From the NCBI GenBank assembly GCA_965222225.1, contig CBDCTK010000002.1, forward strand, positions 4,480,001-4,544,000: a stretch of DNA of 64,000 nucleotides. Reading direction: 5' to 3'. A program made the translations under genes and the position numbers. The notes under the pieces are model-generated. The model was not told the DNA's origin, did not search any database, and worked only from the letters and a program-made list of their open reading frames with translations. Numbering within the stretch: position 1 is the first letter of the stretch; each line of letters begins with the position of its first letter. Below, in pieces: positions 8,577 through 61,968 of this stretch. The stretch comes from Candidatus Poribacteria bacterium. Lineage in GTDB: Bacteria; Poribacteria; WGA-4E; JAJDTR01.

Positions 8577-8749
8577 GAATCTCTATCGCACTCGTTATTC
8601 ACTTGATTGATCGCCGCCGGGGCTTTTGGAGAGGTTGGTAAGAGCTCTATGGGATTTCTATCGCGGTCACTATCCGTTCCCTTGATCGTTATCCACTCGT
8701 TTGATCGCAGTGCGCACCCTACAAATGTACTTTTCAAATAGGCTCTTAA
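8577..8749 (-). repeat. Partial inverted MITE-A copy carrying a REP hairpin and three 36-nt units
   Basis: Reverse complement reads TTAAGAGCCTATTTGAAAAGTACATTTGTAGGGTGCGCACTGC..., matching the start of 24962-25213; units at 8577-8612 and 8643-8706 (nested). Confidence 0.8.
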
Positions 8750-8790
8750 CGTTTGATGTACCAGTTCATTTAGTCAAAGGAGGATAACCA

Positions 8791-9594
8791 ATGGTACTTG
8801 GATTAAGAGGTACACTTCTCGCTACTTTGATAGCATTGATTGCTTTGTGTGGTTGTGAGGAGGCCACAAATTTAGTAGTAGACGCGCTGTCGCCCGAGGA
8901 CCCGGTGATGGAGCCGATGCCCGTTGAAGAAACTACCATGGAGGACGACACTCCGGAACCCGATACGGAGACCGTACCTGTCAAATTGGTGTGGCTAGTC
9001 GACTATCCGGTGGGCGGGAAGGAAGATTATATCGCATGGGTCGCGTCCGTTGCACATATACTGCTAGCGCCAGAAGAACTCAAACGGGTAGCGTCTTACG
9101 ACAATCTTGATGGTTCCAATCCACACCGACTCGTTGAATTTGAATTTGATAGTTTTGCGGATGTCATGACGTACCTGAACCGTCCCGATGTCGCTGAGAT
9201 CTTTGCTGCGTTGCCAAACCATAGCACTAAGGCAAGTACGCATGTGTTCGTTCAGCGTGGTGATTACGCAAAAAACGAGACTACCACGCGAAACGTTAAA
9301 ACCGTCTACTTCGTAGACTATCCGCTTGGAGGCAAAGCGGAGTATTTGGAATGGATTGCGTCGATTGCGCCGATGCTACAGGCTCCTGAAGAGGTAAAGC
9401 GGATAGCATCTTACGACAACTACTATGGAGTGTCTCCACACCGGTTTGTTGAGTTCGAGTTTGATAGCTACGAAGATGCCAATTCGTACCAAGAGCTTGC
9501 AGACGTACAGGACGTTAATGCAGAGTTACCCAATCGAAGCAGTCGCACGTCTGTCCTAACCTTTGAGTTGCGATCCGATTACGTCAACGAATAG
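8791..9594 (+). CDS. Lipoprotein with two tandem alpha/beta-barrel-like (EthD/DUF1330-like) repeats
   Basis: Lipobox LCGC; VDYPxGGKxxYxxWxASxA...APEExKRxASYDN...PHRxVEFEFDS occurs twice. Confidence 0.7.
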   Translation: MVLGLRGTLLATLIALIALCGCEEATNLVVDALSPEDPVMEPMPVEETTMEDDTPEPDTETVPVKLVWLVDYPVGGKEDYIAWVASVAHILLAPEELKRVASYDNLDGSNPHRLVEFEFDSFADVMTYLNRPDVAEIFAALPNHSTKASTHVFVQRGDYAKNETTTRNVKTVYFVDYPLGGKAEYLEWIASIAPMLQAPEEVKRIASYDNYYGVSPHRFVEFEFDSYEDANSYQELADVQDVNAELPNRSSRTSVLTFELRSDYVNE

Positions 9595-9693
9595 TCGAGG
9601 GCGTTGTCATTACGACGCAGCCATGAATTAAGGAGAGGTGTTGGAAGCTGATGGTCGGGTTAGTGTCTACAGCGCACGAGCAGGAGGCGACTT

Positions 9694-10092
9694 ATGAGCA
9701 CATTGAAACCGATTGTCATCAATCAAACGGAACAGTCGTGGGAGGGATGGGATGACGCAGAAATCGCAGCCAAGAGTGCGATTCGCTGGAAAATCCTTAT
9801 ATCCGGCGAGCGAGGTCCTAGCGCCGGGCTAGTTAACGGCATAGCGGAGTTCCCGGTCGGTACTCGGCTGCCCCTTCACCACCACGAACCCGCGGAGACC
9901 TATTATGTCGTCAGCGGGCAGGGCCACATGGAAATCGACGGTCACGACGCAGACATCGGGCCAGGATCAACCGTCTACATTCCGTCCAACGCCAAACACG
10001 CGGTCCGATGCACTGGAGCTGAACCGTTAGTTTTCATTTTCACGTTCGCATGTGACCGATTCGACAAAATTGTTTACCACTTTGACGAATAG
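9694..10092 (+). CDS. Cupin-2 protein, DddK/DddW DMSP-lyase-like
   Basis: RWKILI...GIAEF...LPLHHHEPAETYYV...VYIPSNAKH...DRF. Confidence 0.7.
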   Translation: MSTLKPIVINQTEQSWEGWDDAEIAAKSAIRWKILISGERGPSAGLVNGIAEFPVGTRLPLHHHEPAETYYVVSGQGHMEIDGHDADIGPGSTVYIPSNAKHAVRCTGAEPLVFIFTFACDRFDKIVYHFDE

Positions 10093-10126
10093 CCGGATTG
10101 TGAAGAGGGCTGTTTGAATAGACATT

Positions 10127-15939: not shown

Positions 15940-16395
15940 AGGGGATTGGACGGATGGAAGGATGGAAGAGACGTGGAGACAGAGTTTTCGAGAAGAAACA
16001 CGGATTCCATTGTCTGAACCGCGGATTAAGGGATCTCTATCGCACTCACTATCCGTTCGCTTGATTAGATTAAAGGATTTCACGGATTAAACGTGCCTAA
16101 TCGGTGTTGTATTGCGCCTTGAAGATTCGTATTGCGGACCGGTTTACTGCGGAGTCGCAATGGAGGCCTGGGTTGGCTGTACGTTGTGGGCAACGCGTTT
16201 GGATATGGTGGGCAATGCCCACCCTACAAAAGCTCTATCGCACGGGATTTTCTATGGGAATGCTATCGCATTCGCTATTCGCTCATTTGATCCTTCCTTA
16301 ATCAGTCGGTTGATCGGTCGATATTCACTCCCTTGATCTATTCGCTCAGTCGATCCCTCAATCTATATTGTTCGTTTGATTCCAATCTACGCTAC
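15940..16395. repeat. Intergenic repeat mosaic (REPs plus single and deeply nested 36-nt units)
   Basis: Unit at 16030-16066; REP GGTGGGCAATGCCCACCCTAC at 16207-16227; nested stack at 16231-16382. Confidence 0.8.
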
Positions 16396-17804: not shown

Positions 17805-18014
17805 GAGGTAGAAGCCGAGTTTTCGAGAAAAAAGGGATACGTCGCGAGCTCGCTCCTACAAATCGAACGTGCAATGAATTGCACTACTACAAACCGAGAA
17901 GACGCACAACGGAGAGGGGCCATCAAAGATAGGAAATTGAGAATCTGATGTTTGGAGATGGTGGGCAGGGAATCTCTATCGCACTCACTGTCCGTTCCTT
18001 TGATCCCACCCTAC
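17805..18014. repeat. REP cluster including a REP interrupted by a 36-nt unit
   Basis: GGTGGGCA[17968-18005 unit]CCACCCTAC; further CTAC-ended hairpins near 17841 and 17869. Confidence 0.8.
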
Positions 18015-19559: not shown

Positions 19560-21572
19560 TCACGCATGATGACATTTTGAAAGAAGGTGTTTGAGACATT
19601 TGCCAACATGACAACGAAATTCTTCATACTCATTTTTTTTCACTGGCGAAGCACTCGGATCGGCGTGCGAAACAGTGTCTTTGTGACGTCGAACAAATAA
19701 CTGAAGGACTTGATCGTGCGTTTCGCTGGGCACCTTCCGTTCCCTAAGGAATTCACCTACGTTTTTTTTCTTATAGTCTCTTAATGAGCACGGGGCATTC
19801 TTATCCAATAATTGGCAACTGGCGTGAAACTCGTTAAATAAATGGCTAAGCGCAACTGAATATTCCTCTTTTTGCTCACACAAGACTCGCAATCGAATCT
19901 GTTCGATAACATGTGGTTTAGCTATTTTCAAAGTCTGTGCTTTTGTCAATTCGTAATAACCAAGTGGTCTTGATGGCAAGCCTTTCCGTTTGAAAATATC
20001 CATGATTCGTTTCATCGCTGGGTCTTGTTTGAGAAGTTGGGGCAATTTGCTCGGGGCAAACTCAGTCTGACAGAGATACTGTAGCGCGAGACATATATCC
20101 CTTGACGTTAACGGTTTTTTCTGGCGAAGAAATTTCTGAAATTGCTCAGACACATCACTGCATTTCGAGATTAAAACGATAATCGGCTTTGAATAAGCAT
20201 TAACTAACTCGAAATCAAAGCCGTTAGAACTCAGAAAATATTCTCTAAGTCTATCCATGTAGTTGTATTTGGGACGTACTAACATCCTTTGGACGTTTTC
20301 ATCAAATACCCCCTTGAGCCCTTCCATAAAATTTTCTTCATTGAACTGTTCTTGTACGCTCCTTGGCTCGAAATGTTCCCGAAAGTAAGGTGCTATGGGA
20401 AAGCGCTTCAGTTTCTCCAACTGTTCAAAGATGTGCTCAATTTTAACGGCAGGCTTAACGGTAGTTTTGTCCTCTACGTCGTCATCTCGAGATATCATTT
20501 TCAAATTTCTTGTGAGTGCATCTCTATCGCTTTTCTCTTTTAGTCGGAAAATCTTTGTTTTTGGATTGAGTCGAAGTCCTAATTTTTCGTGAAGACAATC
20601 TGAAATACGGGCTGCTAACGGATTAAACAGAGGTCTCAAATCACTATCCTGTTCTTTAAAAGTGATTGATATATATATGTCGTCCACGTAGCGGATTATG
20701 GCATGATCTTGTATTGATTCGTTGCTGCGACAAAGTTCATCATCAAGATATGAATCCCCAAAGGCAAGAAAAAGATATCCGATGAAATCGGAGATAATGT
20801 TGTTGTCTGATTGCGGTATGCCTGAAGTTCCGCACGCCACAAAATCAAAAAAAGAAACAAGCTGACCATATGTTTTCTCGCCAAAGTAAAGTTTTTTCTT
20901 TACACTGTAATTGACGCGAGTTTCAAGTAAATCAAGAAGTCTCGGAATGCTAAGTTCATCGAAAAAGTTTTGTATGTCCAAGCGAATAACAACCTTGCGC
21001 TCTGTGTTTTCGTCTTTTTCCTTTTCCACCTCTTTGCAGAAGTTTTCATAGTGTGGTACGTGATAGATTGGTTCCTTGATGGGCTTCGGCTTTTTAATGA
21101 TGTGTCCTTGTTCGTTGAACTGTAGATTCCCTCCGTAGCCGGCGCGGATTCGATCGTGAGTGCTATAATTTTCTTGCAGATAATCTTTGGAAAGTTCAAT
21201 CAAATAAATTCCCACGGCGTTGTAAAGGACGCGCATAGGGCATGTCATAAACTTGTAACGACGCAGACCAAGATTAGATTTTGGGATAGTGTATGGAACA
21301 ATCGCAAACTCCCTGCTCAAGCCGTAAAACAGGTTATTGTCAACTGTCGTGCTGAAATACCTTTTCGACTTCAACCTGTTGAACGACTTACTCAGATTTT
21401 CGTAGTGAGACATCTCAGGCGTCCGGAAAAATCTATTTGTTTTTTTTCTTTCTAGTTGATACTCCAACAATTCTAAAGCTTGCAGCCAATGACGGTACTT
21501 CAAAAAATGGCTAAATTGGGGCACGTCATATTCGTTGGGGTTCTTTTTCCGTACGACGGTTTTTTTGTTCAT
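19560..21572 (-). CDS. abiA: AbiA-family reverse transcriptase with C-terminal HEPN-like motif (abortive infection)
   Basis: IPKSNLGLRRY, LDIQNFFD, GIPQ, IRYVDD; C-terminal LFVRRHKDTVSHA; AT-rich relative to flanks. Confidence 0.8.
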   Translation of the reverse strand: MNKKTVVRKKNPNEYDVPQFSHFLKYRHWLQALELLEYQLERKKTNRFFRTPEMSHYENLSKSFNRLKSKRYFSTTVDNNLFYGLSREFAIVPYTIPKSNLGLRRYKFMTCPMRVLYNAVGIYLIELSKDYLQENYSTHDRIRAGYGGNLQFNEQGHIIKKPKPIKEPIYHVPHYENFCKEVEKEKDENTERKVVIRLDIQNFFDELSIPRLLDLLETRVNYSVKKKLYFGEKTYGQLVSFFDFVACGTSGIPQSDNNIISDFIGYLFLAFGDSYLDDELCRSNESIQDHAIIRYVDDIYISITFKEQDSDLRPLFNPLAARISDCLHEKLGLRLNPKTKIFRLKEKSDRDALTRNLKMISRDDDVEDKTTVKPAVKIEHIFEQLEKLKRFPIAPYFREHFEPRSVQEQFNEENFMEGLKGVFDENVQRMLVRPKYNYMDRLREYFLSSNGFDFELVNAYSKPIIVLISKCSDVSEQFQKFLRQKKPLTSRDICLALQYLCQTEFAPSKLPQLLKQDPAMKRIMDIFKRKGLPSRPLGYYELTKAQTLKIAKPHVIEQIRLRVLCEQKEEYSVALSHLFNEFHASCQLLDKNAPCSLRDYKKKNVGEFLRERKVPSETHDQVLQLFVRRHKDTVSHADPSASPVKKNEYEEFRCHVGKCLKHLLSKCHHA

Positions 21573-21696
21573 TGATTTGGTAATTCCCTGCTTAAACTTT
21601 CATTCCGGTCATGAGATTTGTGAACTGCTAGTGGAACCATGCAAAATCCGCGCAATTCCAAGTCTTTGCTGTCTACGACCTAGGCATTTCGACTGT

Positions 21697-22023
21697 CTAC
21701 GAAACATCACCTAGCTCTTCCAAATCTTGCTGTCGCTCCTCCCAATCTGGGAGATAGGCGTGCATGAAGCTTTTGAATAGCCTCCCGTGATTCGGGGCGA
21801 GGAGATGAACCAACTCATGCACAATCACGAATTCGCCCAACGCCGCCGGCAGACGCAGCAACTCGGTGTTCAAGGTCAATCGCCCAGTTGTGGATATAGA
21901 TGCCCACTTTTTCCGCATGTCCCGCAGATGTACCTCGCGCACCGTCACGCCCATGCGCTCAGCCCAACCCCAGACCGCGCCTTTCAAATCGCTCGAATCA
22001 CTCCATATACTTTCGGCGTTCAT
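21697..22023 (-). CDS. M48/YgjP (DUF45) metallopeptidase
   Basis: VIVHELVHLLAPNHG; overlaps the hsdR stop. Confidence 0.85.
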   Translation of the reverse strand: MNAESIWSDSSDLKGAVWGWAERMGVTVREVHLRDMRKKWASISTTGRLTLNTELLRLPAALGEFVIVHELVHLLAPNHGRLFKSFMHAYLPDWEERQQDLEELGDVS

Positions 22024-24890: not shown

Positions 24891-24961
24891 TACGCTCTCC
24901 GAGGGGAGGCAAACGGAAATCAGCAGCGAGCGGGAAAAGTAATTTATCAGATTTTCTTGAT

Positions 24962-44232: not shown

Positions 44233-44361
44233 CCACTGATATGATGTTTTATGGTCGTATTATACAACCTTTTAAGTGTTGATTTCAAACACATTAGCGC
44301 TTGGGTGCAGGGTAGTTGCGTCTGATTATGGGGATGTGGAAAGGTAGCGGGGCGGAAGAAT

Positions 44362-45856: not shown

Positions 45857-45866
45857 CGAAAAGTGC

Positions 45867-46979: not shown

Positions 46980-47030
46980 CACATGAGATTCTACGTCACG
47001 AGGGTGACCACACATTGACGGAGGGAACCA

Positions 47031-47705: not shown

Positions 47706-47819
47706 CGCAATCTGTCTGTTTTTTGGCAGGGTAACGTCAAGAGGGGGGCTGCGCGGGTCGGGCTAGAAGCCCGACCTACAAGAAGGGGTGGCAATTTGGG
47801 TTACGTAACTATGCAGTAA

Positions 47820-48361: not shown

Positions 48362-48819
48362 GTCAATAGCATGGCAAGATATATTGGTTCATCACGGCTG
48401 GGATTCCACGTGATTCGCCGTTCATCTTTTACCCAAGTTGTAGCCTATTGGAGACATTGCAAACCGGGAGGATGTGAGCCAAATCGAGTCAATCACCGCC
48501 CGCAGTGGACTGCCAAATCCACTGCACCTATGGGAGTATGGCTTGGATATGTCTATCCAAGCCGAGCTGAATTTATAAATGGAGTGAAACACAACACACG
48601 AAAATGAAAATCCCAGTATTTACGACTAGATAACAACAAAGGTTCTTTGAGAACTTCTGTTTATCATCGGATGGTTGACCATTGGCTGTGCGCACGGATT
48701 GACATTCGCATCAGTCAGATCTTGGGGAGAGCGGGTGAGTGGTTTGGAAGAGTAGTTGTCATGAACAGGACAGTTACAGAAACCGAGTTTTGAAGAAAAC
48801 GCGGTTTCGCCGCACTTGC

Positions 48820-49054
48820 TTAGAGCCTGCTTGAAAAGTACAGTTTGTAGGGTGCGATCAAAGGCATGAATAATGACTGCGATAGAGATCCCCTGCGCAC
48901 CAGCCTCTAAAAGCCCCAGCGTGGGATCAAGGAAGCGAATAGCGACTGCGATAGAGATCCTACAGGTATGTAGCAGCCAACAATGAAAACATGAAATAAC
49001 TTTCTACAAATGACCAAGATTGGCTTTACCTCCGATTATTCAAACAGGCTCTTA
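48820..49054 (+). mobile_element. MITE-A copy 2 with two 36-nt units
   Basis: TTAGAGCCTGCTTGAA...TTCAAACAGGCTCTTA; units at 48856-48893 and 48925-48960. Confidence 0.8.
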
Positions 49055-49061
49055 GAATGGG

Positions 49062-52000
49062 TTACAATTCTGCCACCATTTCCATCTCGATCCGATGTTC
49101 AGGCGCTTCCTGCTTTGTTGAGAGCAGCCGATATTTGAATCGCAGTAACAAATCTGTCACTTTCCGCACCTTGTATTCCGCGTTCGCTCGAATTTCGTGG
49201 CTTAGTCCCTCGTGGAAATGATATCGCGTGAATGGAATCCCACCAGTGCTATCCCCGAAACCGAGTCGATAATTGAAATCGATTCGGCCCTTCCGTATTA
49301 GGGAGTAAATCAGCCGGTTTTCGATTGATAATGTCCGTGTATGTGCTTCCGGTTCATCCGCCAATTTCTCAAGATCCGAGGTCGTTTCATAGCCGCCAGT
49401 AAGACTAAGCCGAAGAGCGCGGTTAAATTCGTATCGGAAGTCGATTTCACGCCTTCGCTCAAACTGCACCAAATCGGATATTCGATTGGATGTCTCCGCT
49501 TCATTCGCAAGTTGGCTAAACTGCTCTTGTTCGCGGCGCTGCTCCCATCGTCCAACGAATGATATTCGGCGTGTGGGGTTCAGCGTCAGATTGATATCCC
49601 AATCGCGGTTACTTCGCCATCGTTCTCTGTTATTGACACGCCTGTTCAGAGTTTGACTCCGGTTGTAATTCAGGTTAAGGTTCAGTGTGGTTGACGGCGA
49701 GAATTTGAGTTGATAGCGTTGCCTTTCCTGTCCAAAAAGAGTGCGATCGTTACGTAGATCGCGGAGCAGGTATAGCGATGCGGAGTCCGCTTCTTCCTGT
49801 TCTTCCCGGAGATCGAAGCGGATTTCGCCGCTGATGGCTTCCGCCAACCACTCCAACGCAGTTGTATGTTCCGGTGATTCCTCTCCCAATCTTTTACTTC
49901 CATCGCGAGGGGGGAGTTTCGAGTCGGTCGGCAGTATCCCAATTTTTGAGGTCGAAAATCGGCCAGCTCGTCTTCGCCGGGAAAAAATTTGTCGCGGACG
50001 AAAGCGTAATCTCAGTTTGGCATCAATTGCCGAAACGGGTTTGTCGTCAACATTCTGAATAATCTTTATGTAGTTCCCTTCCTCGGAATCTTCCCTATAG
50101 TGCAGGTCGTCAATTTTGACATAAAAACCTTCGCCCGGCTCAATTTCTCTTCCCGTGAACGGATTGATGTTGGAATATATCTCTCGTCGTTCCGTGGCTA
50201 ACTTCTTATCGAGTTCATAGGTAATCTCACCGTACAACGCGCGGTTAAAAGGGGTGAGTCGCACACTGATGTCGGCTAGCTGTGTTGTTACGTCGTTATT
50301 CAGTTTGTGCCGCGCCTCAAACACTCGGCGAGAGATGTTGGATGTCAGGTTTGCCCATTTGCGGGGTTGTGAAAAAAAGCCAACTGTCCATGTTCGCGCA
50401 GTCGTTTGAAGTTTCCAGTCCGAGAAAGCTAATGTTTCCCCGTCAACGGTGAGAAGGTCCTCTTTTCCGAATGATTTTTCAATGGAGTACAACGAATTAG
50501 GCGATGCCCACTTAAAGTTGACAACATCCATGCGACCTGTCGAGATATTCCGCCTTCGATTGAGGTTGGCACCGTCTGTGTAATCAAGATCCAAAGATTC
50601 CAACTGTTCGGTAGCCGCGCTCAGGTTTAATGCCCGAAGCCTATGAACGAGATTCCACTGTTGATTTTCTTTGCGAAACTGGTCAGTTCCCCTGATTTTG
50701 GATGCACTTCTACGCACATTCCATTTTAGTCGAGGGATTTTCAGGGGACTAAAATCGACAGCCCAGTTCAAGTTATCACGGATTGTTATATCGTCCCCCG
50801 GCGTGCGTGGGACAGATTCGCTGTCATTCACGCCGTCTCCCTCTGATTTTGCGCTTGCGGGTGCAGTTGCGCGGAAACGCTCCTCGGTTCGCCCTAGTCC
50901 GGAGTTAAACCCCAACCACGTGAACGGCTTGAATTGGAGGTCGAAGTCCAGCGATCGTTCGTCAGAGGATTGCCGCGGCGCTCTTCCCTCAAGCAGGTAG
51001 AGGTCATCGAATCTCTCCTGCTTGTATTGTTCTTCGTACTGAAAACGGGAGCGATTGGTACTTGATGCGCCAACCGGCACAAAGTCGGCATCAAGAGATC
51101 GAACATCAAGGTTCAACCGGATTTTCTCGTAGGACGAAAGTGCAAGGAGTTTCCACGCTCGACTGATTACCTTCGAATCCAAATCAGAAAAGGTGTTTTT
51201 GTCGAGCGCGCTGAAAGCGACTTCTCCTGTAAGGGAGGTTTGATCGCTTAGATTGAGAGCTCCGTCCAATCCCCATACGCTGTGTTTCTCCGGAGGAATT
51301 AGCGGTTTGCCATCTCCATCAGGATCCAACTCATTTCGGCGGAAATCTATCAAGTCTTGATCGCTGATAACAATGAATGCATTTTCGATGTTGTCCAAGT
51401 CCGACTCAACGGCGTATGCGGCACCAAGAGTAACACGATCTCCGGGCAGATTAAGGGACCCACTCGCACCGTAAAGATTTCGTTGATAGGCTCGATCTTC
51501 GGGGATGAATTCGAAATCAACGCGTATAACATCGTTGCTGGTGATCAGATGCTTATTTGTGAACTCGATTGTCGGGTCACCGTACTCGCGGATAACGTAA
51601 TCATTATTCTTTCCGCGCCGCATTCGCTCACCGTTGAGCCAGACGATATCGCTTCCGGCTTTGACCACGACAAATTCACCGTCGGCGTCGATTCGATACT
51701 CGCTACGCCCCTCTTCACCTCGAATCACTTTGCTTGTGGATTGCCCTTTTGGAATGCTACTCGGTATGAGGTGAAACTTTCCCCACTTGAAATCGCCTTC
51801 AACCTGCACACCTTCCAAAGCCCGCGGGAAAAAGATGAACTCCGAGTTTCCGAGAGAGCCCTCGTAATCGCCCAAGGTCGCGGTGACATTTGGGCTTGTA
51901 ATACGGATGAGTTTTTGGTCAATATCCTGAATGTCCTCGGTTGTACCGCTTGCTTGAATCGGCAGGTCTTGGTCCGACAGCGAGGCAATCACACTAACGT

Positions 52001-52586
52001 TTTCGGATACCTTGCCGTCAACGCTTATGCGTAACTCCCGGTTCTGAGATAGCGATCGATTGCTTCCAACAGAAATTCCGAATCTCTGTGATCCCGTAAC
52101 ATGCAGTTGCGATGGCGCCGTAGCCGGTCTGTCCAGGGTTCTCCTAGGCAATGATGTATCTCGGTCAGTGCCGGTACCCGCCTTTTCACGCGGTGCTTCC
52201 CGATGGAAAAGATCTCGTTGGTACTGTTTCTTGATAGCGAAGGGAAAGGTTTGGTAGGTAATCTCAAGGAGCGCGTCTTTGGCGAAATCGCGTTGGAGGG
52301 TGATTGCGCCTTCGCGGTAGTCAATCTGGTAATCAATTCCCCGCACAAGTGTCTCGCCATCAACTTTCAGCGTTTCACTGTTTCTGATAATGGGTAGGTA
52401 TTTCAGAGCAATTGGTGTCGGAAGGTCATTGAGTTGGTATTTCTCCGATTTGTGGAGCAGGGAGATGACCGGGAGTTCGAACTGACTCGCTTCATCTCCT
52501 GCCGGATCTGCCTTATCCGCGGCGTGAAGCGTAGAATTGAGTATTACGAATAGAAACAAACTCGGTATTGCCAGAAGTTTCCACAT
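49062..52586 (-). CDS. Large secreted/outer-membrane beta-rich protein of unknown function
   Basis: Signal peptide, alternating beta-strand pattern, two LVRGIDYQIDY/RRGKNNDYVI-type motifs. Confidence 0.7.
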   Translation of the reverse strand: MWKLLAIPSLFLFVILNSTLHAADKADPAGDEASQFELPVISLLHKSEKYQLNDLPTPIALKYLPIIRNSETLKVDGETLVRGIDYQIDYREGAITLQRDFAKDALLEITYQTFPFAIKKQYQRDLFHREAPREKAGTGTDRDTSLPRRTLDRPATAPSQLHVTGSQRFGISVGSNRSLSQNRELRISVDGKVSENVSVIASLSDQDLPIQASGTTEDIQDIDQKLIRITSPNVTATLGDYEGSLGNSEFIFFPRALEGVQVEGDFKWGKFHLIPSSIPKGQSTSKVIRGEEGRSEYRIDADGEFVVVKAGSDIVWLNGERMRRGKNNDYVIREYGDPTIEFTNKHLITSNDVIRVDFEFIPEDRAYQRNLYGASGSLNLPGDRVTLGAAYAVESDLDNIENAFIVISDQDLIDFRRNELDPDGDGKPLIPPEKHSVWGLDGALNLSDQTSLTGEVAFSALDKNTFSDLDSKVISRAWKLLALSSYEKIRLNLDVRSLDADFVPVGASSTNRSRFQYEEQYKQERFDDLYLLEGRAPRQSSDERSLDFDLQFKPFTWLGFNSGLGRTEERFRATAPASAKSEGDGVNDSESVPRTPGDDITIRDNLNWAVDFSPLKIPRLKWNVRRSASKIRGTDQFRKENQQWNLVHRLRALNLSAATEQLESLDLDYTDGANLNRRRNISTGRMDVVNFKWASPNSLYSIEKSFGKEDLLTVDGETLAFSDWKLQTTARTWTVGFFSQPRKWANLTSNISRRVFEARHKLNNDVTTQLADISVRLTPFNRALYGEITYELDKKLATERREIYSNINPFTGREIEPGEGFYVKIDDLHYREDSEEGNYIKIIQNVDDKPVSAIDAKLRLRFRPRQIFSRRRRAGRFSTSKIGILPTDSKLPPRDGSKRLGEESPEHTTALEWLAEAISGEIRFDLREEQEEADSASLYLLRDLRNDRTLFGQERQRYQLKFSPSTTLNLNLNYNRSQTLNRRVNNRERWRSNRDWDINLTLNPTRRISFVGRWEQRREQEQFSQLANEAETSNRISDLVQFERRREIDFRYEFNRALRLSLTGGYETTSDLEKLADEPEAHTRTLSIENRLIYSLIRKGRIDFNYRLGFGDSTGGIPFTRYHFHEGLSHEIRANAEYKVRKVTDLLLRFKYRLLSTKQEAPEHRIEMEMVAEL

Positions 52587-52799
52587 ATAAGCGCATCCAG
52601 ATCGGCTTGCTACGTGAATCTACAAATAATTACGGTGAAATGAATCTTCAGCAGTCTTCACGTAATATTGTCCTTATTTGTTACAGATTGTCCTCCTTTC
52701 TTCAAGGATTTCAATTTCCGTTGATGTGGTCCGTGTTTCTCAATCGAAAGTATTCCGAGACCAAAGTTATTATGCGTTGTATTTTCCAGTTGGCATTCC

Positions 52800-53471
52800 T
52801 CAAACGGGCGGAATGCACTCGGGCGAGTCATTTTTTGGTTGGTTCACCAGGCGCGAGACCGCAAAATTCTCCATCTCCTCTGCGGGATAGGACGTGAGAA
52901 GGTGATTCAGCGTAGCGGGATCACATTCGACCGGGGCCAGCCACAGGTCATACGCGTCTTGGTCCAAGATAACCGGCATTCGGTGGTGAATTGGCTCCAA
53001 CATTTCGTTTGCAGGACAGGTAATGATTGAGCACGACAGCACAGGTTCAACTTCGCCCTGCGGTCGTCAAGCTTCCCAAAGCCCGGCAAAGGCAAAAGGT
53101 TGCTCCGACGCCATCCGGATGTAAAACGGTGTCTTGGCACTTCCACCGGGCTCTTTTCGCCATTCGTAATAACCATCGACAAGGACGAGACAGCGACGAC
53201 ATTTGTAGGCGTTTCGGATCGAAGGTTTTTCGGAAAGCGTCTCTGCTCGTGCATTTATCATTCGGTTACCGATTTTCGGGTCTTTTGCCCATGGTGGAAT
53301 GAGTCCTGAACGGAAGAATTCGATTCATTCAATGCCGTTGTTCGGCACAACAGCGACAGGCTGTGTTGGGGCAATGTTGTAACGTGGCGTGAAGGCGTCG
53401 GACACCTCGAATTCGAGGAGGAATCTTATAAAGTTCATTGGGTCGGTTGCGAAGGTGAATCTGCCGCACAT
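52800..53471 (-). pseudogene. SRAP/YedK SOS-response-associated peptidase with two in-frame TGA stops
   Basis: MCGRF, RYNIAPTQ, INARAET, DGYYEW, IHHRMPVIL in one frame; stops at 53325-53327 and 53067-53069. Confidence 0.88.
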
Positions 53472-53500
53472 AATTGTCTCCTAGTTGCAGAATGGAACCG

Positions 53501-53795
53501 ATTTAAGAGTCTGTTTGAATAAAAGATGACAAAGCCATTCTTGGACATTCGAGTTGTTATTACCTGTGGGTTCTCTATCGCGCTCCGTGTTCAGTTACTC
53601 AATCCTGCTTTGTAGCACCGAGCTGTGTGCGCGATCCCGGAACTATATTGCGCTAGGAGGTCGCAATCGGGACATCGTTCCTACAGTAGGTCGTAGTAGC
53701 GCAATTCATTAAGCGTCCGGCTCATCGTTCAATCGTTGTACGTTGCTTGCCATGTTGTTTAGTGTAGAAACGGGCATTAAACTACTCCACTACGA
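53501..53795. repeat. Inverted MITE-A end plus REP mosaic with a degenerate unit
   Basis: TAAGAGTCTGTTTGAATAA...CAAAGCCAT; unit at 53568-53604; several GTAG/CTAC hairpins. Confidence 0.65.
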
Positions 53796-53821
53796 ATCTT
53801 AGGTATTCAACTGCGTAGGTA

Positions 53822-55864
53822 CTAACTCTCGTCGCGGAGGAGGCGCCGCATAATCTTGTTGGATGCTGTTCGAGGCAATGAATCACGAATCACCACATCG
53901 TGGATTTTGAAAAGAGGGTTGAGTTGTTCGCGGATCGCCACTCGTAGAGCAGCACTTAACGAAGCTTTATCTGGATATGCCTCTGGCAGCAAGACGGCGT
54001 GAATTATCAACTGACTTGGTCCTCCATCTTTGGGAGACACAGCCATGGCTGCGGTCTCACGAACGCCGCTCACGGTATTGAGAACCTGTTCAATCTCCGC
54101 CGAGCTGACTTTAATCCCATTTAAGTTCATCGTATCATCCACGCGACCATGAACCCGGTAGAATCCACCAGCCAAGCGTTCAACCTGGTCTCCGTGACGG
54201 CGAAGCGGCTCAGTATTAGGAATAGTCGGAGTTCCTTCAAAATAGACCTCGTGGTGGTCGCTGCCCAATAACTCTGTCGAGAGACCCATGGACGGTGGGA
54301 TGAGAAAAACTTCTCCGTTGTCAGTGTGGTTTCCCTCCGCGTCAAGAATGACAAGGTCGGAGCCCAATGCAGGCGTCGTAAACGTGGCTGGCGCAGCGGG
54401 CTGTATGAGTGTGCCTGTGATATAGCCGCCGCCGATTTCCGTTCCTCCACAATACTCGATTATTGGCCGATATTCCGCTAACGACATCAGAAATAGCATA
54501 TCCTCCCGATTGGAACATTCGCCGGTTGAACTGAAGGCTTTTATCTTGCGCCAATCAAGACCCTTCATACATTCCGTATTTTTCCACGCCCTGACCAAGC
54601 TTGGCACAACCCCAAGCATCGTGACACCGGCATCCTGTACAAACTCGCCAAACTCTCTGTCCGTTGGTAAGCCGTCATATAGAGCCATCGTTGCTTTGTT
54701 GATTAGACTTGCGTAGATTAGCCAAGGTCCCATCATCCAACCGAGATTGGTGGGCCAAGCCAATACATCTCCGGGCTTAATATCGTGATGTAAGTAAGCG
54801 TCTAGCGCACATTTGATGGGCGTTGTATGCGTCCAAGGTATGGCTTTAGGCGTTCCAGTAGTTCCGGAGGAGAACAGGATGTTCGTATGTCCATGCGGGT
54901 GACAGGCGACCGAGTTAAATTCGTCCCTATCACTTAGAAACTGTTCCCAAGTCAAATCCCGCGGTCGCAATTCGAGCGGCAATGTCGATTCTTCGCTAGC
55001 ACACAGAACGACAGCTTTCGGCGCGCCGGCAGCAATTACCTTAGAATATAGCGGCAACTGCGTGTCGCCACGAAAAATGACATCTTGAGTAAAAACTGCT
55101 TTTGTATCCGCAATTTTGAGACGGGTTTCTATCTCGTGCGGCGCAAAGCTATCGGCAACCGAAACTACCGTGCATCCCGCTTTGATGATTCCCAAATAGA
55201 TGGCAACCGATTCAGGCGTCATCGGCATGTCAACCGCGATAGAATCGCCTGCCGTGAATCTGGCGTCCACTAGTGAATTGGCGACCCGATTTGACATAGA
55301 ATCAAGTTCGTTGTAGGTTAATGTTGAGAGCGGCGTTCTTTCCGATTTTGAGACGATTGCGGGGGCATTCCCCAATGCCCTGAAGCAACTGTCCGCGATA
55401 TTCAACGCAGCTCCCGCGAGCCACTGCGGAGATTCTGCATTGCAGGACAATTCTACAACTGCCTCGAAGGGCTTGCTGAACCGAATTTCCAACCTATCTA
55501 CCATTAGTTCAAAGAAACTAGCGCGATTCTCGACCGACCATACGTGGAAATCTCCGTAAGACTCAATGCCCAATTCCCTCATCAATCCGGTAATATTTGC
55601 CCGTTGAACCTGTTCATCAGAGGGAAACCAAGCTGGGGCGGGCCCATCGTGTGATGTATTCCAGTCGGAAAAGGCGCACTCATGCAATAGCTTGTGGAGG
55701 ACAAATGGATGGGAAGGCGTCAAGACTTCATCGGTGATTCGTTTCCAGCATTGCGAGGGTGGCAGCGATTGGAGCAGGGGATTTACTTGCTTTAGTATCT
55801 TGGACGCGCCGGATTTGTCTAACCCGCATTGACTAAGTTGATTAAGATTCAGTTGAGTAGCCAT
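53822..55864 (-). CDS. AMP-forming acyl-CoA synthetase (acetate/acetoacetate-CoA ligase-like)
   Basis: FSSGTTGTPK, YCGGTEIGG, GRVDD, LPRTASNK. Confidence 0.9.
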   Translation of the reverse strand: MATQLNLNQLSQCGLDKSGASKILKQVNPLLQSLPPSQCWKRITDEVLTPSHPFVLHKLLHECAFSDWNTSHDGPAPAWFPSDEQVQRANITGLMRELGIESYGDFHVWSVENRASFFELMVDRLEIRFSKPFEAVVELSCNAESPQWLAGAALNIADSCFRALGNAPAIVSKSERTPLSTLTYNELDSMSNRVANSLVDARFTAGDSIAVDMPMTPESVAIYLGIIKAGCTVVSVADSFAPHEIETRLKIADTKAVFTQDVIFRGDTQLPLYSKVIAAGAPKAVVLCASEESTLPLELRPRDLTWEQFLSDRDEFNSVACHPHGHTNILFSSGTTGTPKAIPWTHTTPIKCALDAYLHHDIKPGDVLAWPTNLGWMMGPWLIYASLINKATMALYDGLPTDREFGEFVQDAGVTMLGVVPSLVRAWKNTECMKGLDWRKIKAFSSTGECSNREDMLFLMSLAEYRPIIEYCGGTEIGGGYITGTLIQPAAPATFTTPALGSDLVILDAEGNHTDNGEVFLIPPSMGLSTELLGSDHHEVYFEGTPTIPNTEPLRRHGDQVERLAGGFYRVHGRVDDTMNLNGIKVSSAEIEQVLNTVSGVRETAAMAVSPKDGGPSQLIIHAVLLPEAYPDKASLSAALRVAIREQLNPLFKIHDVVIRDSLPRTASNKIMRRLLRDES

Positions 55865-55945
55865 GTGAAGCGCTTCTGGTCTTGTTGGTCTATCGACGTT
55901 CTAGAACGAGAAGAGATTGTACTAAATGTGGGTGTCTTCGTAAAT

Positions 55946-56722
55946 CTAACGTGCGGTCCAGCCCAGGTCAATCGCCCAATCGGCGCCGGTAATAACTCCC
56001 GCTTCCTCGGAGCAGAGGTAAACAACGAGCGAGGCAATCTCCTCCGGTCGAATAAGCCGCTTAATTGCCGCGGGCGCCAACATCACCTGTTCCAATACTT
56101 CATCGCGCGTGAGTTGATGTGTCTCTGCCTGATCGGCAATCTGTTCCTCAACCAAGGGTGTCTGCACATATCCTGGACAGATTGCATTCACGGTGATGCC
56201 GTGCGCTCCGCCTTCCAGTGCGGCAGAGCGGGTAAAACCGATTAACCCATGCTTTGCCGTAACGTAAGCGCTCTTGAAGGGGGATGCCACGCGCCCGTGA
56301 ATTGAAGAGATGTTGATAATTCGCCCCCAACCGTTGGCTTTCATCGCTTGCCAGACATGTTGGGTTAGTAGGAAAGGCGCGGTAAGCATGACGGCGATCA
56401 TTTTGTCCCAGATTTCCGGAGGAAAGGTTTCAATGGATTCAACATGTTGGAGACCGGCGTTGTTGACCAAAATGTCAACTCTACCGTGCCAATCCAAGGT
56501 TTCGGCGATTAGGCGTAGACAATCTTCGCGTTGAGACAAGTCGGCTTGGACGAATCGGGCATCTAATGCGTCAGCAGCAGCTTCACCACCCGCTTTGTCG
56601 ATGTCAGCCACAACCACTCGGTCGCCTCTTTGAGCCAGTGCTTGGGCAATTGAGCGCCCGATGCCACTCGCCGCCCCGGTGACGATCGCAACACTTTGAT
56701 CCATGTTTAGCCGTCCTGCCAT
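55946..56722 (-). CDS. bdhA: D-3-hydroxybutyrate dehydrogenase
   Basis: TGAASGIG, NNAGLQH, KSAYVTAKHG, CPGYVQTPLV. Confidence 0.88.
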   Translation of the reverse strand: MAGRLNMDQSVAIVTGAASGIGRSIAQALAQRGDRVVVADIDKAGGEAAADALDARFVQADLSQREDCLRLIAETLDWHGRVDILVNNAGLQHVESIETFPPEIWDKMIAVMLTAPFLLTQHVWQAMKANGWGRIINISSIHGRVASPFKSAYVTAKHGLIGFTRSAALEGGAHGITVNAICPGYVQTPLVEEQIADQAETHQLTRDEVLEQVMLAPAAIKRLIRPEEIASLVVYLCSEEAGVITGADWAIDLGWTAR

Positions 56723-56813
56723 CAGTTCCTATGCCGTTTCTTAAATCTTAACCTATTATGGTGTGTTGTTCAACTGGCAAATTTTGGCAGCAACCTCGTG
56801 TCGCGGATTCTTC

Positions 56814-56902
56814 GTAGGGATCCAACGAACGAATAGATCAACCGAGCGGATAGCAATCCCATAGTGATCTCGGTGCGATTGAAATCTCTCGTTGTTCCCT
56901 AC
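56814..56902 (+). repeat. REP interrupted by nested 36-nt units
   Basis: GTAGG[GATCCAACG...GATCAACCG...GAAATCTC]TCGTTGTTCCCTAC. Confidence 0.7.
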
Positions 56903-56918
56903 AGTACAGACAAATGAA

Positions 56919-56947
56919 TTGACATCATTTGATTCACTTGTTAAAAT
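56919..56947 (+). promoter_or_regulatory. Predicted sigma70 promoter of the nusB cluster
   Basis: TTGACA-17 nt-TAAAAT with an extended TG. Confidence 0.65.
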
Positions 56948-57014
56948 TTAGTCGTTTGCGCCACGGCAGGAACTCACCTCATACGCGATTCATTGCAATC
57001 TAAAGAACGGGAAA

Positions 57015-57467
57015 ATGATGAGACTACGAACCAGAGCACGGGCATGTGCTCTCCAGATGTTATATCAAGCCGAGATGACACAGGATTCGATTGGCTATGT
57101 TCAGAAGCTTTTCTGGCAATCGGAAAATGCGCCCGAGCATGTGCGAGAATTCGCTAATCCTCTCGTCGAAGGTACGTTTGAACATCGGGCGACGATTGAT
57201 TCGGCAATACGGTCTACCGCCGACAACTGGACGCTTGAACGCATGCCGATCGTGGATCTCTGTATTCTGCGCAGCGCTACTTATGAGCTCCTTTATCTCG
57301 TTGATATACCCCCCGCTGTCTCAATTAACGAAGCGGTTGAACTTGCCAAGACTTATAGCACTGACGATTCCCCGAAATTTGTAAATGGCGTTTTGGATCG
57401 AATCAAGGAGATTGCGTCGACGATGACCGGATGGGAACACCTGCGAACCAGTGGAGGCAATAGTTGA
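57015..57467 (+). CDS. nusB: Transcription antitermination factor NusB
   Basis: [30 protein letters not shown]. Confidence 0.96.
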
Positions 57468-59276: not shown

Positions 59277-60023
59277 ATGAGTCAATTCGTCGCTGATTTT
59301 GAAGCCTATATACCCACCGAGTTTAACGGAAAACCGTACGGAAAGCCCGGTGTTCTGTCCACGATGGATGAGGCAGGTATTGATACTAGCGTGGTCTTCA
59401 TGGGCGGCTTGCCAAACGATCCGCGAGAGGGCAACGCGGAGCTACTGAGGGAGGTCAAAGGCGAGGCACGGATTCTTCCCGGCGCTCTCATCAATCCCAC
59501 GATGGGGCCTCTTGCAACCGACGACCTGAAGCGATGCGTCGATCGGGGGGCGCGGACAGCTAAGTTAATGGCTGCCGCTCACCGCTATCACCTTGATTCC
59601 GCCTGCGTCGATCCGATAATAGAACTCGCAGACTCACTTGGGATTCCCGCAACGATTCATTCGGGATCTCCCATGAGCGGGTGCTCACCGGAATTTATCG
59701 GGACGCTCGCCAAACGTCATCCGAATGTGGTAATCATCATGGATCACATGGGTTATCGCGAGTGGATTGGGCACGCCGTGCAGGCGGCAGTAGAGAATCC
59801 GCAGATTTATCTTGGCACCACGCTCATCGCGGCAGCGGAGCCGATTTCAGTTAAGGGTGTGGCGCACGGCGGGCAGGTCGGCGCTGATCGCATCGTATTC
59901 GGGTCAAACGCGCCGTCCGGCGTGGCTACGCACGGCGTCAACGGTATCCGAAATGTCAGGTTTACCGACGAAGAGGAGGCACTCATCCTAGGAGAGAATT
60001 TCAAGCGGATTTATGGAATCTGA
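59277..60023 (+). CDS. Amidohydrolase_2 family protein
   Basis: IHSG, IIMDHMG, RIVFGSN, ILGENF. Confidence 0.8.
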   Translation: MSQFVADFEAYIPTEFNGKPYGKPGVLSTMDEAGIDTSVVFMGGLPNDPREGNAELLREVKGEARILPGALINPTMGPLATDDLKRCVDRGARTAKLMAAAHRYHLDSACVDPIIELADSLGIPATIHSGSPMSGCSPEFIGTLAKRHPNVVIIMDHMGYREWIGHAVQAAVENPQIYLGTTLIAAAEPISVKGVAHGGQVGADRIVFGSNAPSGVATHGVNGIRNVRFTDEEEALILGENFKRIYGI

Positions 60024-60582
60024 AAGTCGCCGTATGAAGCAGTTGCGGGGCAAACCGCTCAAGGATTACTTGAAGCAGGTCGAACATCCCGGGACGGATC
60101 TTGTCATCGTATTGCAGGATGTGGAGGATCCGGTTAATGTTGGCGCTGCATTCCGAATTGCAGATGCCTGCGATGCGCGTGAACTCGCTTTGACAGGGAC
60201 GACTCCGGTTCCGCCCCATCCTTCGATTGCTGGCATCGGACGCGGAACGCATCGGCGCGTAAACTGGCGCTATTCGAATTCGGCGTCGGAGGCGATTCAA
60301 GGTTTCAAGGAACGCGGGTATACAAGCTGTGCCATAGAGGTTGCCTCGAACTCTTTACCCTACTACGAGGTTGAATATCCGGATAAAGTTTGCCTAATAC
60401 TGGGGAACGAATATTACGGGGTCGCAAAGCGAACAATTTCCGTCTGTGATATGGCGATTTATATCCCGATGTACGGGAAGGTGATGTCGCTGAATGTGCA
60501 CGTTGCGCTTGGGATTGCGGCGTATCATATTATTCATAGTGATCGGATGCGGGGACAACGACACGAGTTCCAGACGGAATGA
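60013..60582 (+). CDS. TrmH/SpoU RNA methyltransferase
   Basis: DPVNVGAAFR, LGNEYYGV, IPMYGKVMSLNV. Confidence 0.9.
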   Translation: MESESRRMKQLRGKPLKDYLKQVEHPGTDLVIVLQDVEDPVNVGAAFRIADACDARELALTGTTPVPPHPSIAGIGRGTHRRVNWRYSNSASEAIQGFKERGYTSCAIEVASNSLPYYEVEYPDKVCLILGNEYYGVAKRTISVCDMAIYIPMYGKVMSLNVHVALGIAAYHIIHSDRMRGQRHEFQTE

Positions 60583-60741
60583 TCCCTCTGAACAGGTTAT
60601 TTGGACACATTTTCCGCTTGACAAAATCAAAGAGAGATAGAATCATGTAATCCGTTTGCCACCACAATAACGGATACTGGTTTGTACAACAGGCTCATAC
60701 GTATGAATTAGTATTTTGAAACCCGATAAGGAGACTGCAAG

Positions 60742-61791
60742 TTGAAAATAAGCTACTGGCATTGTCTGGCACTAATCTCAATTGTCGTATTGATAATGAG
60801 TTCCACGGCGGTCCTTGCAGATGGTGGAAAAATTAGCGGCCTTTACTTCGGCGATTATTATTACATCGCCGCGCACCACAACGAGGAACGGAAATCGCGC
60901 AACGGATTCTGGACGCGCCGCGTATACCTGACGTACGATCAGAAGTTGAATGAGACGTTCTCGTCGCGCCTGCGTTTCGAAATGAATAGTCCAGACGGTT
61001 TGAAGGCGGACGCCGCCGGCAAGAATATTCCGTATGTGAAGGATGCGTATTTGAGAGTGTCACCGAAGGGCTCGTCGCACAGTATCTATCTGGGACGGTC
61101 TACTGCACCAACCTATGCAGTGTTGGTCAAACTCTGGGGTTATCGAGCAGTTGAGAAGTCCATGCCTAACTTGCAGAAGTATGGCAGTACGCGGGACTTG
61201 GGGATTGCAGTGAAGGGCAAAGTGCCAGGAGTGGACATACTGAGTTATCACGCGATGGTTGGCAACGGCGCAAGCACTGGCACGGAGACCAACAAAGGCA
61301 AAAAGGGGTACCTGTCAACAACGCTTAGGCCCTCCGGAGGCGTTATTGTTCAGGGGTATGTGGACTATGAGGCAAGGGAACTCGACATGAATCGCATGAC
61401 CTTTATGGGAATCGTGGGATACCAAAAGGAAAAATATAGGGTTGGTGCGCTGCTCGCCCACCAGATTCGAGGTCGGGCGGAAGGGAAGGATGATGAAAGG
61501 CTTCAGGGACTGTCCGTCTTTGGAGCTGCCGCTGTAAAACCCGACAAGATTTGGGTGTTTGGGCGCGTTGACAAGATGTTGAGCGTAAACTCCGCGGGGC
61601 CAAAATTCACGTATACGCCAATGAGCGGTTCCGCAAAGTCGAATACGCTCATTGCAGGACTCGATTACCGCCCGGCGAAGAACGTACACATCATACCGAA
61701 TGTGTTCATGGTCATCTACGATTCGCCCGAGGAGGGTGAGAAGCCGGACGCCGATCTGATGACGCGCGTGACACTCTACTATAAGTTCTAG
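60742..61791 (+). CDS. Outer-membrane porin-like protein (OprO/P-like)
   Basis: Signal peptide, GFWTRRVYL, VKDAYL, RDLGI, terminal YYKF. Confidence 0.65.
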   Translation: MKISYWHCLALISIVVLIMSSTAVLADGGKISGLYFGDYYYIAAHHNEERKSRNGFWTRRVYLTYDQKLNETFSSRLRFEMNSPDGLKADAAGKNIPYVKDAYLRVSPKGSSHSIYLGRSTAPTYAVLVKLWGYRAVEKSMPNLQKYGSTRDLGIAVKGKVPGVDILSYHAMVGNGASTGTETNKGKKGYLSTTLRPSGGVIVQGYVDYEARELDMNRMTFMGIVGYQKEKYRVGALLAHQIRGRAEGKDDERLQGLSVFGAAAVKPDKIWVFGRVDKMLSVNSAGPKFTYTPMSGSAKSNTLIAGLDYRPAKNVHIIPNVFMVIYDSPEEGEKPDADLMTRVTLYYKF

Positions 61792-61917
61792 TGAATGACA
61801 TTTTTGTGGGTAATACCATGTCTCTAAAATTCAGGCGCCTTGATTGCAGGAGTTAAGTAAAGGAATTTGTGCGGCGTGGAGTAAGATGCCTGTCGCCGCG
61901 CAAAGTCTGCGGGGCAA

Positions 61918-61968
61918 GGGGATCTCTATCAGGATTTACTATCGCCTTCGCTATTCGCTCAGTTGATC
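61918..61968 (-). repeat. Nested 36-nt units in a hairpin remnant
   Basis: GGGGATCTCTATC[AGGATTTACTATCGCCTTCGCTATTCGCTCAGTTGATC]CCCGTCTA. Confidence 0.7.

Follow-up and report, generated by a model that had tools for sequence, protein, structure and literature searches.

Among the repeats described so far, the closest in kind to the element considered here are the small dispersed repeats (SDRs) of cyanobacteria, SDR1–8, which Elhai et al. (2008, Genome Res 18:1484) reportedly found in Nostoc punctiforme and its relatives and which are said to be very small nested mobile repeats of 21–27 nt; the repetitive extragenic palindromic sequences (REPs) come next. In this work, we describe a unit of about 36 nt, beginning with GATCAA, which is dispersed through the genome of Candidatus Poribacteria bacterium, a sponge symbiont. 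The unit was noticed in a 64-kb stretch, C2:4480001–4544000 (hereafter the window), of a metagenome-assembled genome (MAG) of 5.70 Mb in two contigs with 50% G+C. A first-pass annotation of the window had proposed that the unit inserts into REP hairpins and into itself in a fixed orientation. The results lead us to regard it, with moderate confidence, as a very small structured non-autonomous mobile DNA element that is moved in trans, probably as a folded single strand.

Just as is reported for the SDRs, the unit is tens of nucleotides long, dispersed, intergenic and partly hairpin-forming, encodes no enzyme, lies nested in other repeats and in copies of itself, and is missing at orthologous sites. 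It differs from them in its hosts (Poribacteria, not cyanobacteria) and in its length (34–37 nt as against the reported 21–27 nt), a distinction drawn from the description of the SDRs and not from their sequences. The target rule S/GCR (the slash marks the junction) with a loss of 1–4 bases, the replication-strand bias and the strand-specific G·T pairs set out below were worked out for the poribacterial unit. Given what is reported of the cyanobacterial SDRs, the kind of element is not wholly undescribed; for the unit itself, no published description was found in literature searches that left supplementary files outside their scope. New here are the strand-specific wobble structure, the target rule, the strand biases, the distribution over two genera with two kinds of tail, the invasion of CRISPR (clustered regularly interspaced short palindromic repeats) DNA and the exclusion of four enzymes.

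The 36-nt consensus, with up to three mismatches allowed, matched the window 12 times, as compared to 0.00 matches expected from 100 dinucleotide shuffles, and looser scans added several split copies, thus bearing out the dispersed unit of the earlier annotation. Across the genome, the 36-nt pattern was matched exactly at 130 places, with up to three mismatches at 699 and with up to five at 963; its 30-nt core was matched with up to two mismatches at 978. In an alignment of 489 copies, the two bases before the unit (−2 and −1) carry no more than 0.66 bit, whereupon the information content rises to 1.7–2.0 bits at GATCAA and drops after base 37; these sharp edges indicate that the unit is a discrete tract of 36–37 nt. 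This is its length in the window's genus (g1), and in a second genus (g4) it measures 34 nt. The conserved core consists of GATCAA, an irregular hairpin (NN GA NN - GRATA - NN GA NN) and GCGATAG, followed by a short tail that varies between lineages. The 3′ ends vary too, AGATCCC being the commonest, along with AGATC, AGATCC, AGATCT, AGATCTTC and others. All units in the window lie between called open reading frames (ORFs) and hence none is in a coding sequence, as had been annotated. Over the whole genome, 82% of which was assigned to coding regions, only 144 of 975 units (15%) overlap crude ORF calls; 14 units are placed 90 nt or more within crude ORFs of at least 250 aa. Units deep in ORFs are seen, e.g., at C2:2921272, 701605 and 3738217, one of them within an ORF of 2419 aa.

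The hairpin takes up 27 nt of the 36–37-nt unit and is followed by a conserved unpaired 3′ tail. The positions 6-22, 7-21, 10-18 and 11-17 (counted from 0) are paired in 94–97% of the copies, while 48–79% would be expected from column composition. The stem covaries, with every Watson-Crick type present and 217 stem signatures among 699 units, and the pairs G8·A20, A9·G19 and G12·A16 are nearly invariant. Wobbles in the stem are markedly one-sided, as 331 G·T or T·G pairs were counted versus 35 A·C or C·A pairs. This indicates that the GATCAA strand alone is kept foldable, be it in the form of RNA or of single-stranded DNA. Seven of the eight commonest variants fold, under RNA parameters, into ATC/GAT - AA/GC - NN - GA/GA - NN - GRATA at −2.7 to −6.9 kcal/mol; with DNA parameters, the ATC/GAT..GRATA fold was not found for these eight variants. 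Furthermore, of 564 units, 111 have an exact duplicate and 453 distinct 36-mers are present, so that many copy lineages must have served as sources. The unit resembles REPs and their paired form, the REPINs, in being an imperfect hairpin of about 35 nt whose 5′ foot is conserved and which is present outside genes in hundreds of copies and in many sequence variants. Unlike in REPs, however, the foot is GATCAA and not GTAG or CGTC, and the stem is built of four Watson-Crick pairs plus G·A pairs, with the single-stranded tail added.

That the unit inserts into existing DNA follows from a comparison with empty paralogous sites, defined as the same 11-nt left and 10-nt right flanks without a unit. 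Such a site was found for 248 of 978 units, corresponding to 214 distinct combinations of flank and stem signature (events). In the filled sites, the left flank is continuous up to the G of GATCAA, and the replaced stretch begins with G in 223 of the 248. The strings replaced in the 214 events are GCG (27), G (27), GA (26), GC (21) and GCA (16), to name the commonest; nothing was replaced in 13, and in most events 1–4 bases were lost, in agreement with the few missing host bases reported earlier. For instance, GTAGGGTGC-GCA-CTGCGCACC has the filled counterpart GTAGGGTGC-[unit]-C-CTGCGCACC; GTAGGCGGG-GCAT-CTTGCCCC becomes GTAGGCGGG-[unit]-C-CTTGCCCC; and CCCAGCGGG-GCGA-CAGGT becomes CCCAGCGGG-[unit]-CA-CAGGT. 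In one REPIN of a sister genome the two arms differ, one being empty and the other filled in the same manner. The unit is thus joined 5′ of a G that is preceded by G or C, best at S/GCR, with 1–4 bases replaced; the near (5′) junction is exact and the far (3′) junction is ragged.

The absence of a target duplication, another claim made from the window, also held, since direct repeats of 2–6 nt flanking the units were not enriched, bar one 3-mer signal at a unit length of 38 (38 vs. 14.6 expected). Judging from the REP sequence, we read this signal as the REP's own palindrome. Miniature inverted-repeat transposable elements (MITEs), e.g., Nezha, Correia/NEMIS and RUP, are characterized in PMC3733652 as having 70–300 bp, terminal inverted repeats and target duplications. 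The unit shares with them non-autonomy, high copy number and an intergenic location. A MITE was nevertheless rejected, as the annotation had judged for the ordinary kind, because the unit is only 34–37 nt long, makes no target-site duplication and in its g4 subfamily lacks the GATC..GATC ends of 4–5 bp. The GATC-like 3′ end noted earlier is confined to g1, and the units of g4 end in TYTT. We also rejected a GATC restriction/ligation fragment, given that the empty sites are GCR and not GATC and that g4 units have no 3′ GATC.

The unit is itself a frequent target, just as had been proposed: for 224 of 780 units, the sequence immediately in front is the 5′ part of another unit that points the same way. 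The outer unit is cut after its position 23 (96 cases), 12 (37), 17 (32), 19 (28), 10 (13) or 18 (11), more rarely after 25 (4), 8 (2) or 22 (1), the next base of the outer unit being a G or R in each case. What is left of this unit resumes behind the inner one, short of a few bases; an example is CATAGAGATCC, from which GCG is missing. Another 31 units are inserted into an antisense copy, at ..TCTATC/GC, which fits C/GCR. Among neighbouring units less than 150 nt apart, 194 pairs are direct, 36 tail-to-tail and 10 head-to-head, so that, unlike the REPs in REPINs and bacterial interspersed mosaic elements (BIMEs), the units of this genome are mostly single or in direct nests and not in inverted doublets.

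The distribution was followed in 168 Poribacteria genomes of at least 80% completeness from 26 genera, with matches counted at one mismatch or fewer. High counts are confined to g1 (10 of 10 genomes, 529–1216 matches) and to g4, which belongs to another family (4 of 4, 184–205). Seven further genomes have 1–19 matches each. In G060, a MAG of the otherwise unit-free genus g6, all 19 matches are on four contigs (C72, C83, C91 and C116), possibly contigs of g1 that were mis-binned or else a transferred island; the low counts outside g1 and g4 are no evidence of spread. A motif scan of public genomes gave at least 125 stretches, and all among the matches listed (80 of 125) are from Poribacteria. 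The g4 subfamily has the same 30-nt core with a TYTT tail in place of AGATCC and fewer stem signatures (e.g., loci L182, L183, L253 and L147), and it sits in a REP of g4's own (GTAGGTTGGGT..AACCCAAC); two of its loci, L182 and L183 (3 of 30 rows), have inverted doublets, the spacer being about 19 nt long. Amplification of the unit is thus lineage-specific. Of 9 sister species, whose flanking gene is 81–91% identical, 6 have an orthologous spacer without the repeat cluster of window positions 8460–8790. In two genomes that are about 96% identical over 44 kb, three units are common at orthologous sites and the differences concern whole clusters.

These data bear on the view that the unit is a motif selected for a host function, such as a protein-binding site, a terminator, an mRNA stabiliser or a nucleoid element. 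A structure strongly conserved through compensatory changes and an almost exclusively intergenic location are what such a motif would show. Yet most sister species lack units in the orthologous spacer and whole genera have none, and units interrupt one another and CRISPR repeats. Their orientation has no link to gene direction in tandem spacers (297 co-oriented, 262 not), and Rfam 15 gave no match at the gathering score in the window and none at E ≤ 1 over 48700–49100. A host function of this sort is therefore very improbable. That the unit is a mobile element we consider, conversely, highly probable.

CRISPR repeats were found to serve as hosts as well. A type I CRISPR-Cas locus outside the window (L250, G000:C2:2699412–2707950) encodes Cas7/DevR (2.3e-64), Cas5 and Cas1 (1.2e-69), and its 37-nt CRISPR repeat starts with GTAG and forms a hairpin. 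In 4 of 12 cases, the 5′ half of the repeat is followed by a unit after GAAAAG(C); reverse units in the repeat's other arm abut CCCGAYGAAAAG, at GGG/GCA of the opposite strand. Modules of 240 nt that bear units are duplicated in tandem in the array, and with these insertions and duplications the array is partly wrecked.

Such a repeat, together with a unit length (36–37 nt) close to that of the spacers (about 35–39 nt), raises the question of whether Cas1 integrates the unit ectopically, as spacer-sized DNA, into repeat-like hairpins. In a first sample, close orthologues of Cas1 were indeed present in 11 of 14 unit-rich genomes vs. 2 of 27 others. Over the phylum, however, Cas1 did not track the unit. 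Half of the unit-free g6 genomes (10 of 20) have it, as do g12, g13 and one genome of g9, and it was not found in 3 of 10 g1 genomes, which carry 529–825 units. Moreover, the units lie inside the repeat hairpin and not at its borders, no repeat-length duplication stands beside them, and all belong to one sequence family, unlike spacers. Integration by Cas1 is accordingly the least credible of the explanations considered here and was rejected.

The duplicated CRISPR modules also speak for a different possibility, namely that the unit has no mobility of its own and is spread by REPs, REPINs and composite repeats and by gene conversion among them. One signature, AG-AT..AT-CT, recurs in 49 copies at one REP site, mostly behind GTAGGGTGC; the units at 25084 and 48925 of the window lie in the same composite repeat; and whole clusters were gained or lost between the genomes G001 and G009. 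On the other hand, passive spread does not readily account for 214 distinct events with an empty paralog, for 20 different signatures at site 1 of the REP-A family and 9 at its site 2, for nine insertion positions in the unit itself, or for hosts as unrelated as several REP families, CRISPR repeats and 14 ORFs. We therefore consider it quite improbable that the unit is only a passenger.

Scarcely less improbable, in our opinion, is the RNA- or protein-templated 'writing' put forward in the first-pass annotation. Here the target would be nicked 5′ of its G, the GATCAA strand would be synthesized from this primer on RNA or another template, and the far end would be joined imprecisely. A precise 5′ junction, a ragged 3′ end and the loss of 1–4 target bases would all suit such a scheme, the G·U and tandem G·A pairs are typical of RNA, the fold is predicted with RNA and not DNA parameters, and a reverse transcriptase gene does lie in the window. 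This gene (19560–21572, minus strand) encodes a full-length AbiA-type protein of 670 aa (PADLOC 4e-76) and is the only RVT_1 match in the genome. It is part of a defence island at 19560–25067 (minus strand) that also includes the R subunit of a type I restriction enzyme (1015 aa). As the genome's sole reverse transcriptase is thus a defence enzyme, and as its relatives do not track the unit (5 of 9 sister species, 4 of these 5 with stop codons; 1 of 4 g4 and 1 of 7 g6 genomes), the proposal fared badly and this enzyme was rejected. Furthermore, the orientation of the units is independent of transcription, and an antisense RNA template would turn the G·T pairs into C·A mismatches. The ragged far junction also fits a nick-primed copy-and-join, and 'writing' is therefore kept alive, at low odds.

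The fixed orientation relative to the GTAG-first strand was confirmed with few exceptions. GTAGG is present within 15 nt upstream on the same strand of 218 units (161 distinct combinations of context and signature), and in the REPs A and A′ 64 insertions (29 combinations of site and signature) are on the GTAG top strand vs. 6 (2) on the bottom strand. The core of REP-A, TGC/GCA, is palindromic and insertion is yet one-stranded, so that more than the local hexamer must be read. Landing in a REP hairpin at a set position and orientation is also a trait of REP-targeting insertion sequences, such as IS1397 in the palindromic units of BIMEs; REPs are also reported as targets of insertion sequences by Tobes and Pareja (2006). 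Those are elements of about 1–1.5 kb that encode a transposase and duplicate their target, and the unit, with 36 non-coding nucleotides, is unlike them.

A second bias concerns the replication strand. By GC skew, 347 of 492 clusters (347 vs. 145) and 549 of 776 units (549 vs. 227), about 71%, have the unit on the C-rich strand. Intact REPs share this bias (REP-A 85 vs. 30, REP-C 70 vs. 38), and units without a nearby GTAG keep it (323 vs. 146). By the usual reading of GC skew, the foldable strand would mostly be the leading-strand template. Along the 5.6-Mb contig C2, the skew switches sign many times in a 100-kb profile, with no single origin-terminus pattern; either the chromosome is much rearranged or the assembly was joined at repeats.

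Which enzyme could be responsible? None is identifiable in the window, as had already been stated, and the genome was searched for a Y1 nuclease. It has five Y1 hits, one intact IS200-like gene and otherwise genes or remnants resembling REP-associated tyrosine transposases (RAYTs), the best of which carries a TAG stop; two of the five loci are flanked by units. The intact IS200-like Y1 of 157 aa (L001, G000:C2:3080255–3080728) lies between inverted copies of the hairpin motif CCAAGCCCCAGSGGGGCGACAGGT, one empty and one with a unit replacing GCG, in a REPtron-like layout. A master copy beside its enzyme, as suggested from the window, was not borne out and was rejected: as many as 62 of the 4352 crude genes are flanked on both sides by units no more than 200 nt away, where 27 would be expected. 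The IS200-like Y1 is one of these 62, but its flanks are REP-like hairpins that are ordinary targets of the unit.

In the mechanism that we favour, the GATCAA strand, folded and single-stranded, would move in step with replication. The enzyme would be supplied in trans, and the leading candidates are Y1/HUH nucleases of the RAYT/IS200 kind, which already act on the top strand of REPs. As set out above, GATCAA is attached by its G immediately in front of a G of the target, preferably at S/GCR in GC-rich hairpin repeats (GTAG REPs, earlier unit copies, CRISPR repeats), with 1–4 bases replaced and none duplicated. For a single-strand, hairpin-dependent step in the movement, we see the chances as about even. 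A Y1/HUH enzyme as the agent is a tentative assignment and rather doubtful; a RAYT-kind enzyme is our best guess because the REP top strand is respected, the strand bias of REPs is shared, and such enzymes cut and join single strands of hairpins. RAYT genes are present in all 14 unit-rich genomes, though they also occur in most genera, with or without units. According to a preprint (bioRxiv 10.1101/279083), the substrates of Y1/HUH enzymes are single-stranded hairpins at the replication fork, and IS608 and ISDra2 use the lagging-strand template. The unit shares with these single-strand 'peel and paste' elements of the IS200/IS605 group (IS608, ISDra2) the lack of notable terminal inverted repeats and of target duplication, a presumed dependence on a hairpin, and an orientation linked to replication.

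Several observations weigh against this mechanism. All four candidates (the IS200-like Y1, the RAYTs, the AbiA reverse transcriptase and Cas1) fail in phylogenetic co-occurrence, the test that the first-pass annotation had proposed. The IS200-like Y1 was rejected, as every unit-free g6 genome has it (7 of 7) and just 2 of 4 g4 genomes do. The RAYT role suggested earlier may hold insofar as the GTAG strand is respected and every unit-rich genome has RAYTs; as trackers of the unit, RAYTs were rejected, being equally common in unit-free genera (8 of 10 g3 and 7 of 7 g6 genomes). From 60 regions fetched for a RAYT tree, 58 had a reading frame. Among these 58, bar one two-member pair, there is no clade limited to both unit-rich genera, and two clades that are found only in g1 are not shared with g4. 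Around the 58 RAYT loci the units have no fixed arrangement and no clade is specifically flanked by them, so that, unlike for REPs, which are here the unit's targets, no cognate RAYT was found.

The mode of insertion is a further difficulty. Known Y1 transposition is precise, takes place 3′ of a fixed tetra- or pentanucleotide and has its active strand on the lagging-strand template. The unit, by contrast, has no fixed tetra- or pentanucleotide on its 5′ side, where the flank is just S-biased, loses target bases, and has its folding strand mostly on the leading-strand template, i.e., with the opposite bias; these three features speak against a textbook Y1 mechanism. Miniatures of the IS200/IS605 kind, moreover, have one hairpin per end, while the unit has one in all. 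The strand bias could also result from selection against hairpins on the lagging-strand template, and many copies are passengers of larger repeats, as the signature found up to 49 times at one REP site illustrates. Finally, the empty and filled orthologous sites that the annotation called for were seen for a whole cluster, as described above, and not for single units: no presence/absence of a single unit was seen between close strains, of which about 60–78 kb of 400 kb are collinear, and strain reads over window positions 37300–57200 (runs X3, X7, X10 and X13) showed no clean single-copy presence/absence, with contigs breaking at repeats. Movement on the strain time scale was thus seen neither in reads nor in the comparison of close genomes.

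A pathway outside the classical transposition schemes can also be envisaged. The folded single strand of 34–37 nt would be joined at a nick 5′ of a hairpin G, the next 1–4 bases would be replaced, and the top-strand asymmetry of the REP would be read even at a palindromic local target; the enzyme might be a RAYT in a 'swap' mode or an unrecognised protein common to two genera of Poribacteria. We consider such a new insertion pathway unlikely, though worth naming.

The individual copies in the window illustrate these rules. In the first cluster, all on the minus strand, the consensus scan found a full unit at 8577–8612 behind ..AAAGCCCCGGCGGC and another at 8652–8687, nested within a further unit after its position 19. 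The 19-nt 5′ part of this outer unit (8688–8722, with the 5′ part of the split copy at 8690–8706) follows GTAGGGTGCGCACTGC, the second TGC/GCA site of REP-A, and the nest extends over 8652–8722. The contexts quoted in the earlier annotation are indeed present, namely GTAGGGTGCGCACTGC at 8706, GTAGGGTGG at 17970, GTAGGAGC at 44463, GTAGGGTGC at 48856 and GTAGG at 56814. Its coordinates 8643, 16231, 37437, 37536, 44435, 53568, 56819 and 61918 turned out in looser scans to be the starts of clusters or split and partial copies. An AATCAA variant of the full unit was found by the consensus scan at 16031–16066 (minus strand). A four-deep nest occupies 16229–16355 (minus strand); its innermost full unit is at 16257–16292, the 5′ parts of three outer units are at 16299–16355 and their tails, CATAGAAAATCC and CGTGCGATAGAGC, at 16229–16256, and a GTAGGGTGGGCATTGCCCACC REP adjoins it. 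At 17960–18014 (minus strand), a REP-A′ is split into GTAGGGTGG, the unit at 17970–18005 and C CTGCCCACC, the GCA of the intact REP being replaced.

On the plus strand, the unit at 25084–25119 lies in a composite repeat, between ..AAGCCCCAGCGTGG and TACAGGTATGTAGCAGCC, and the full unit at 48925–48960 lies in the same composite. This repeat of about 160 nt, which has many copies in the genome, reads GTAGGGTGCGCACTGCGCACCAGCCTCTAAAAGCCCCAG(A/C)GTGG - unit - TACAGGTATGTAGCAGCCAACAATGAAAACATGAAA and was seen at 25040–25170 and 48846–49010; the unit occupies fixed places in it and travels along with it. Also on the plus strand, a REP-A at 48846–48902 is split into GTAGGGTGC, the unit at 48856–48891 and C CTGCGCACC. 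In the strain reads, skips of 37–38 nt at 48854/48855–48893 were considered as empty alleles and rejected; their depth of 105–190 and sides of 21–27 nt mark them as other REP copies. Two degenerate units with three mismatches each were found on the minus strand by the consensus scan (37450–37485 and 37568–37603). At 44435–44506 (minus strand), GTAGGAGC is followed by the unit at 44463–44498 and by CATAGAGATCC and CAAGGCGATAGAAATCC, the tails of older split units (44435–44461). A tail fragment, GCGATAGAGAACC, stands alone at 53569–53581 (minus strand). The nest at 61920–61968 (minus strand) comprises, in this order, ..ATAGACGGG, the unit at 61933–61968, an outer unit's tail, at 61920, and CCTTGCCCCGC of the REP-B type.

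A GTAGG.. REP at 56814–56903 (plus strand) holds two partial units (56819–56887). At 56848, the strain reads of runs X7 and X13 (depth 36–37) have 29 extra nucleotides that complete the inner unit. These 29 nt, the sole single-copy difference in the reads, were lost in the window copy between two GATAGC repeats, so that units decay by deletion between short repeats.

The unit is one of the smallest mobile DNAs seen. It consists of little beyond one irregular hairpin and some 20 fixed bases and is thus close to the lower size limit of mobile DNA; being near-minimal, it shows which features are enough to be recognized by its enzyme. The target rule, the strand rules, the natural before-and-after sites and the two-genus distribution make the search for that enzyme tractable. 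The unit could also show what RAYT-type enzymes, the function of which is still debated, can do to hairpin DNA. Should the new insertion pathway prove true, no structured mobile DNA with a defined target rule would be smaller than this one, which would also be capable of disrupting CRISPR arrays. Assemblies are broken at the sites of the unit. Furthermore, in an uncultured phylum of sponge symbionts, the unit reshapes intergenic DNA, the REP families and at least one CRISPR array.

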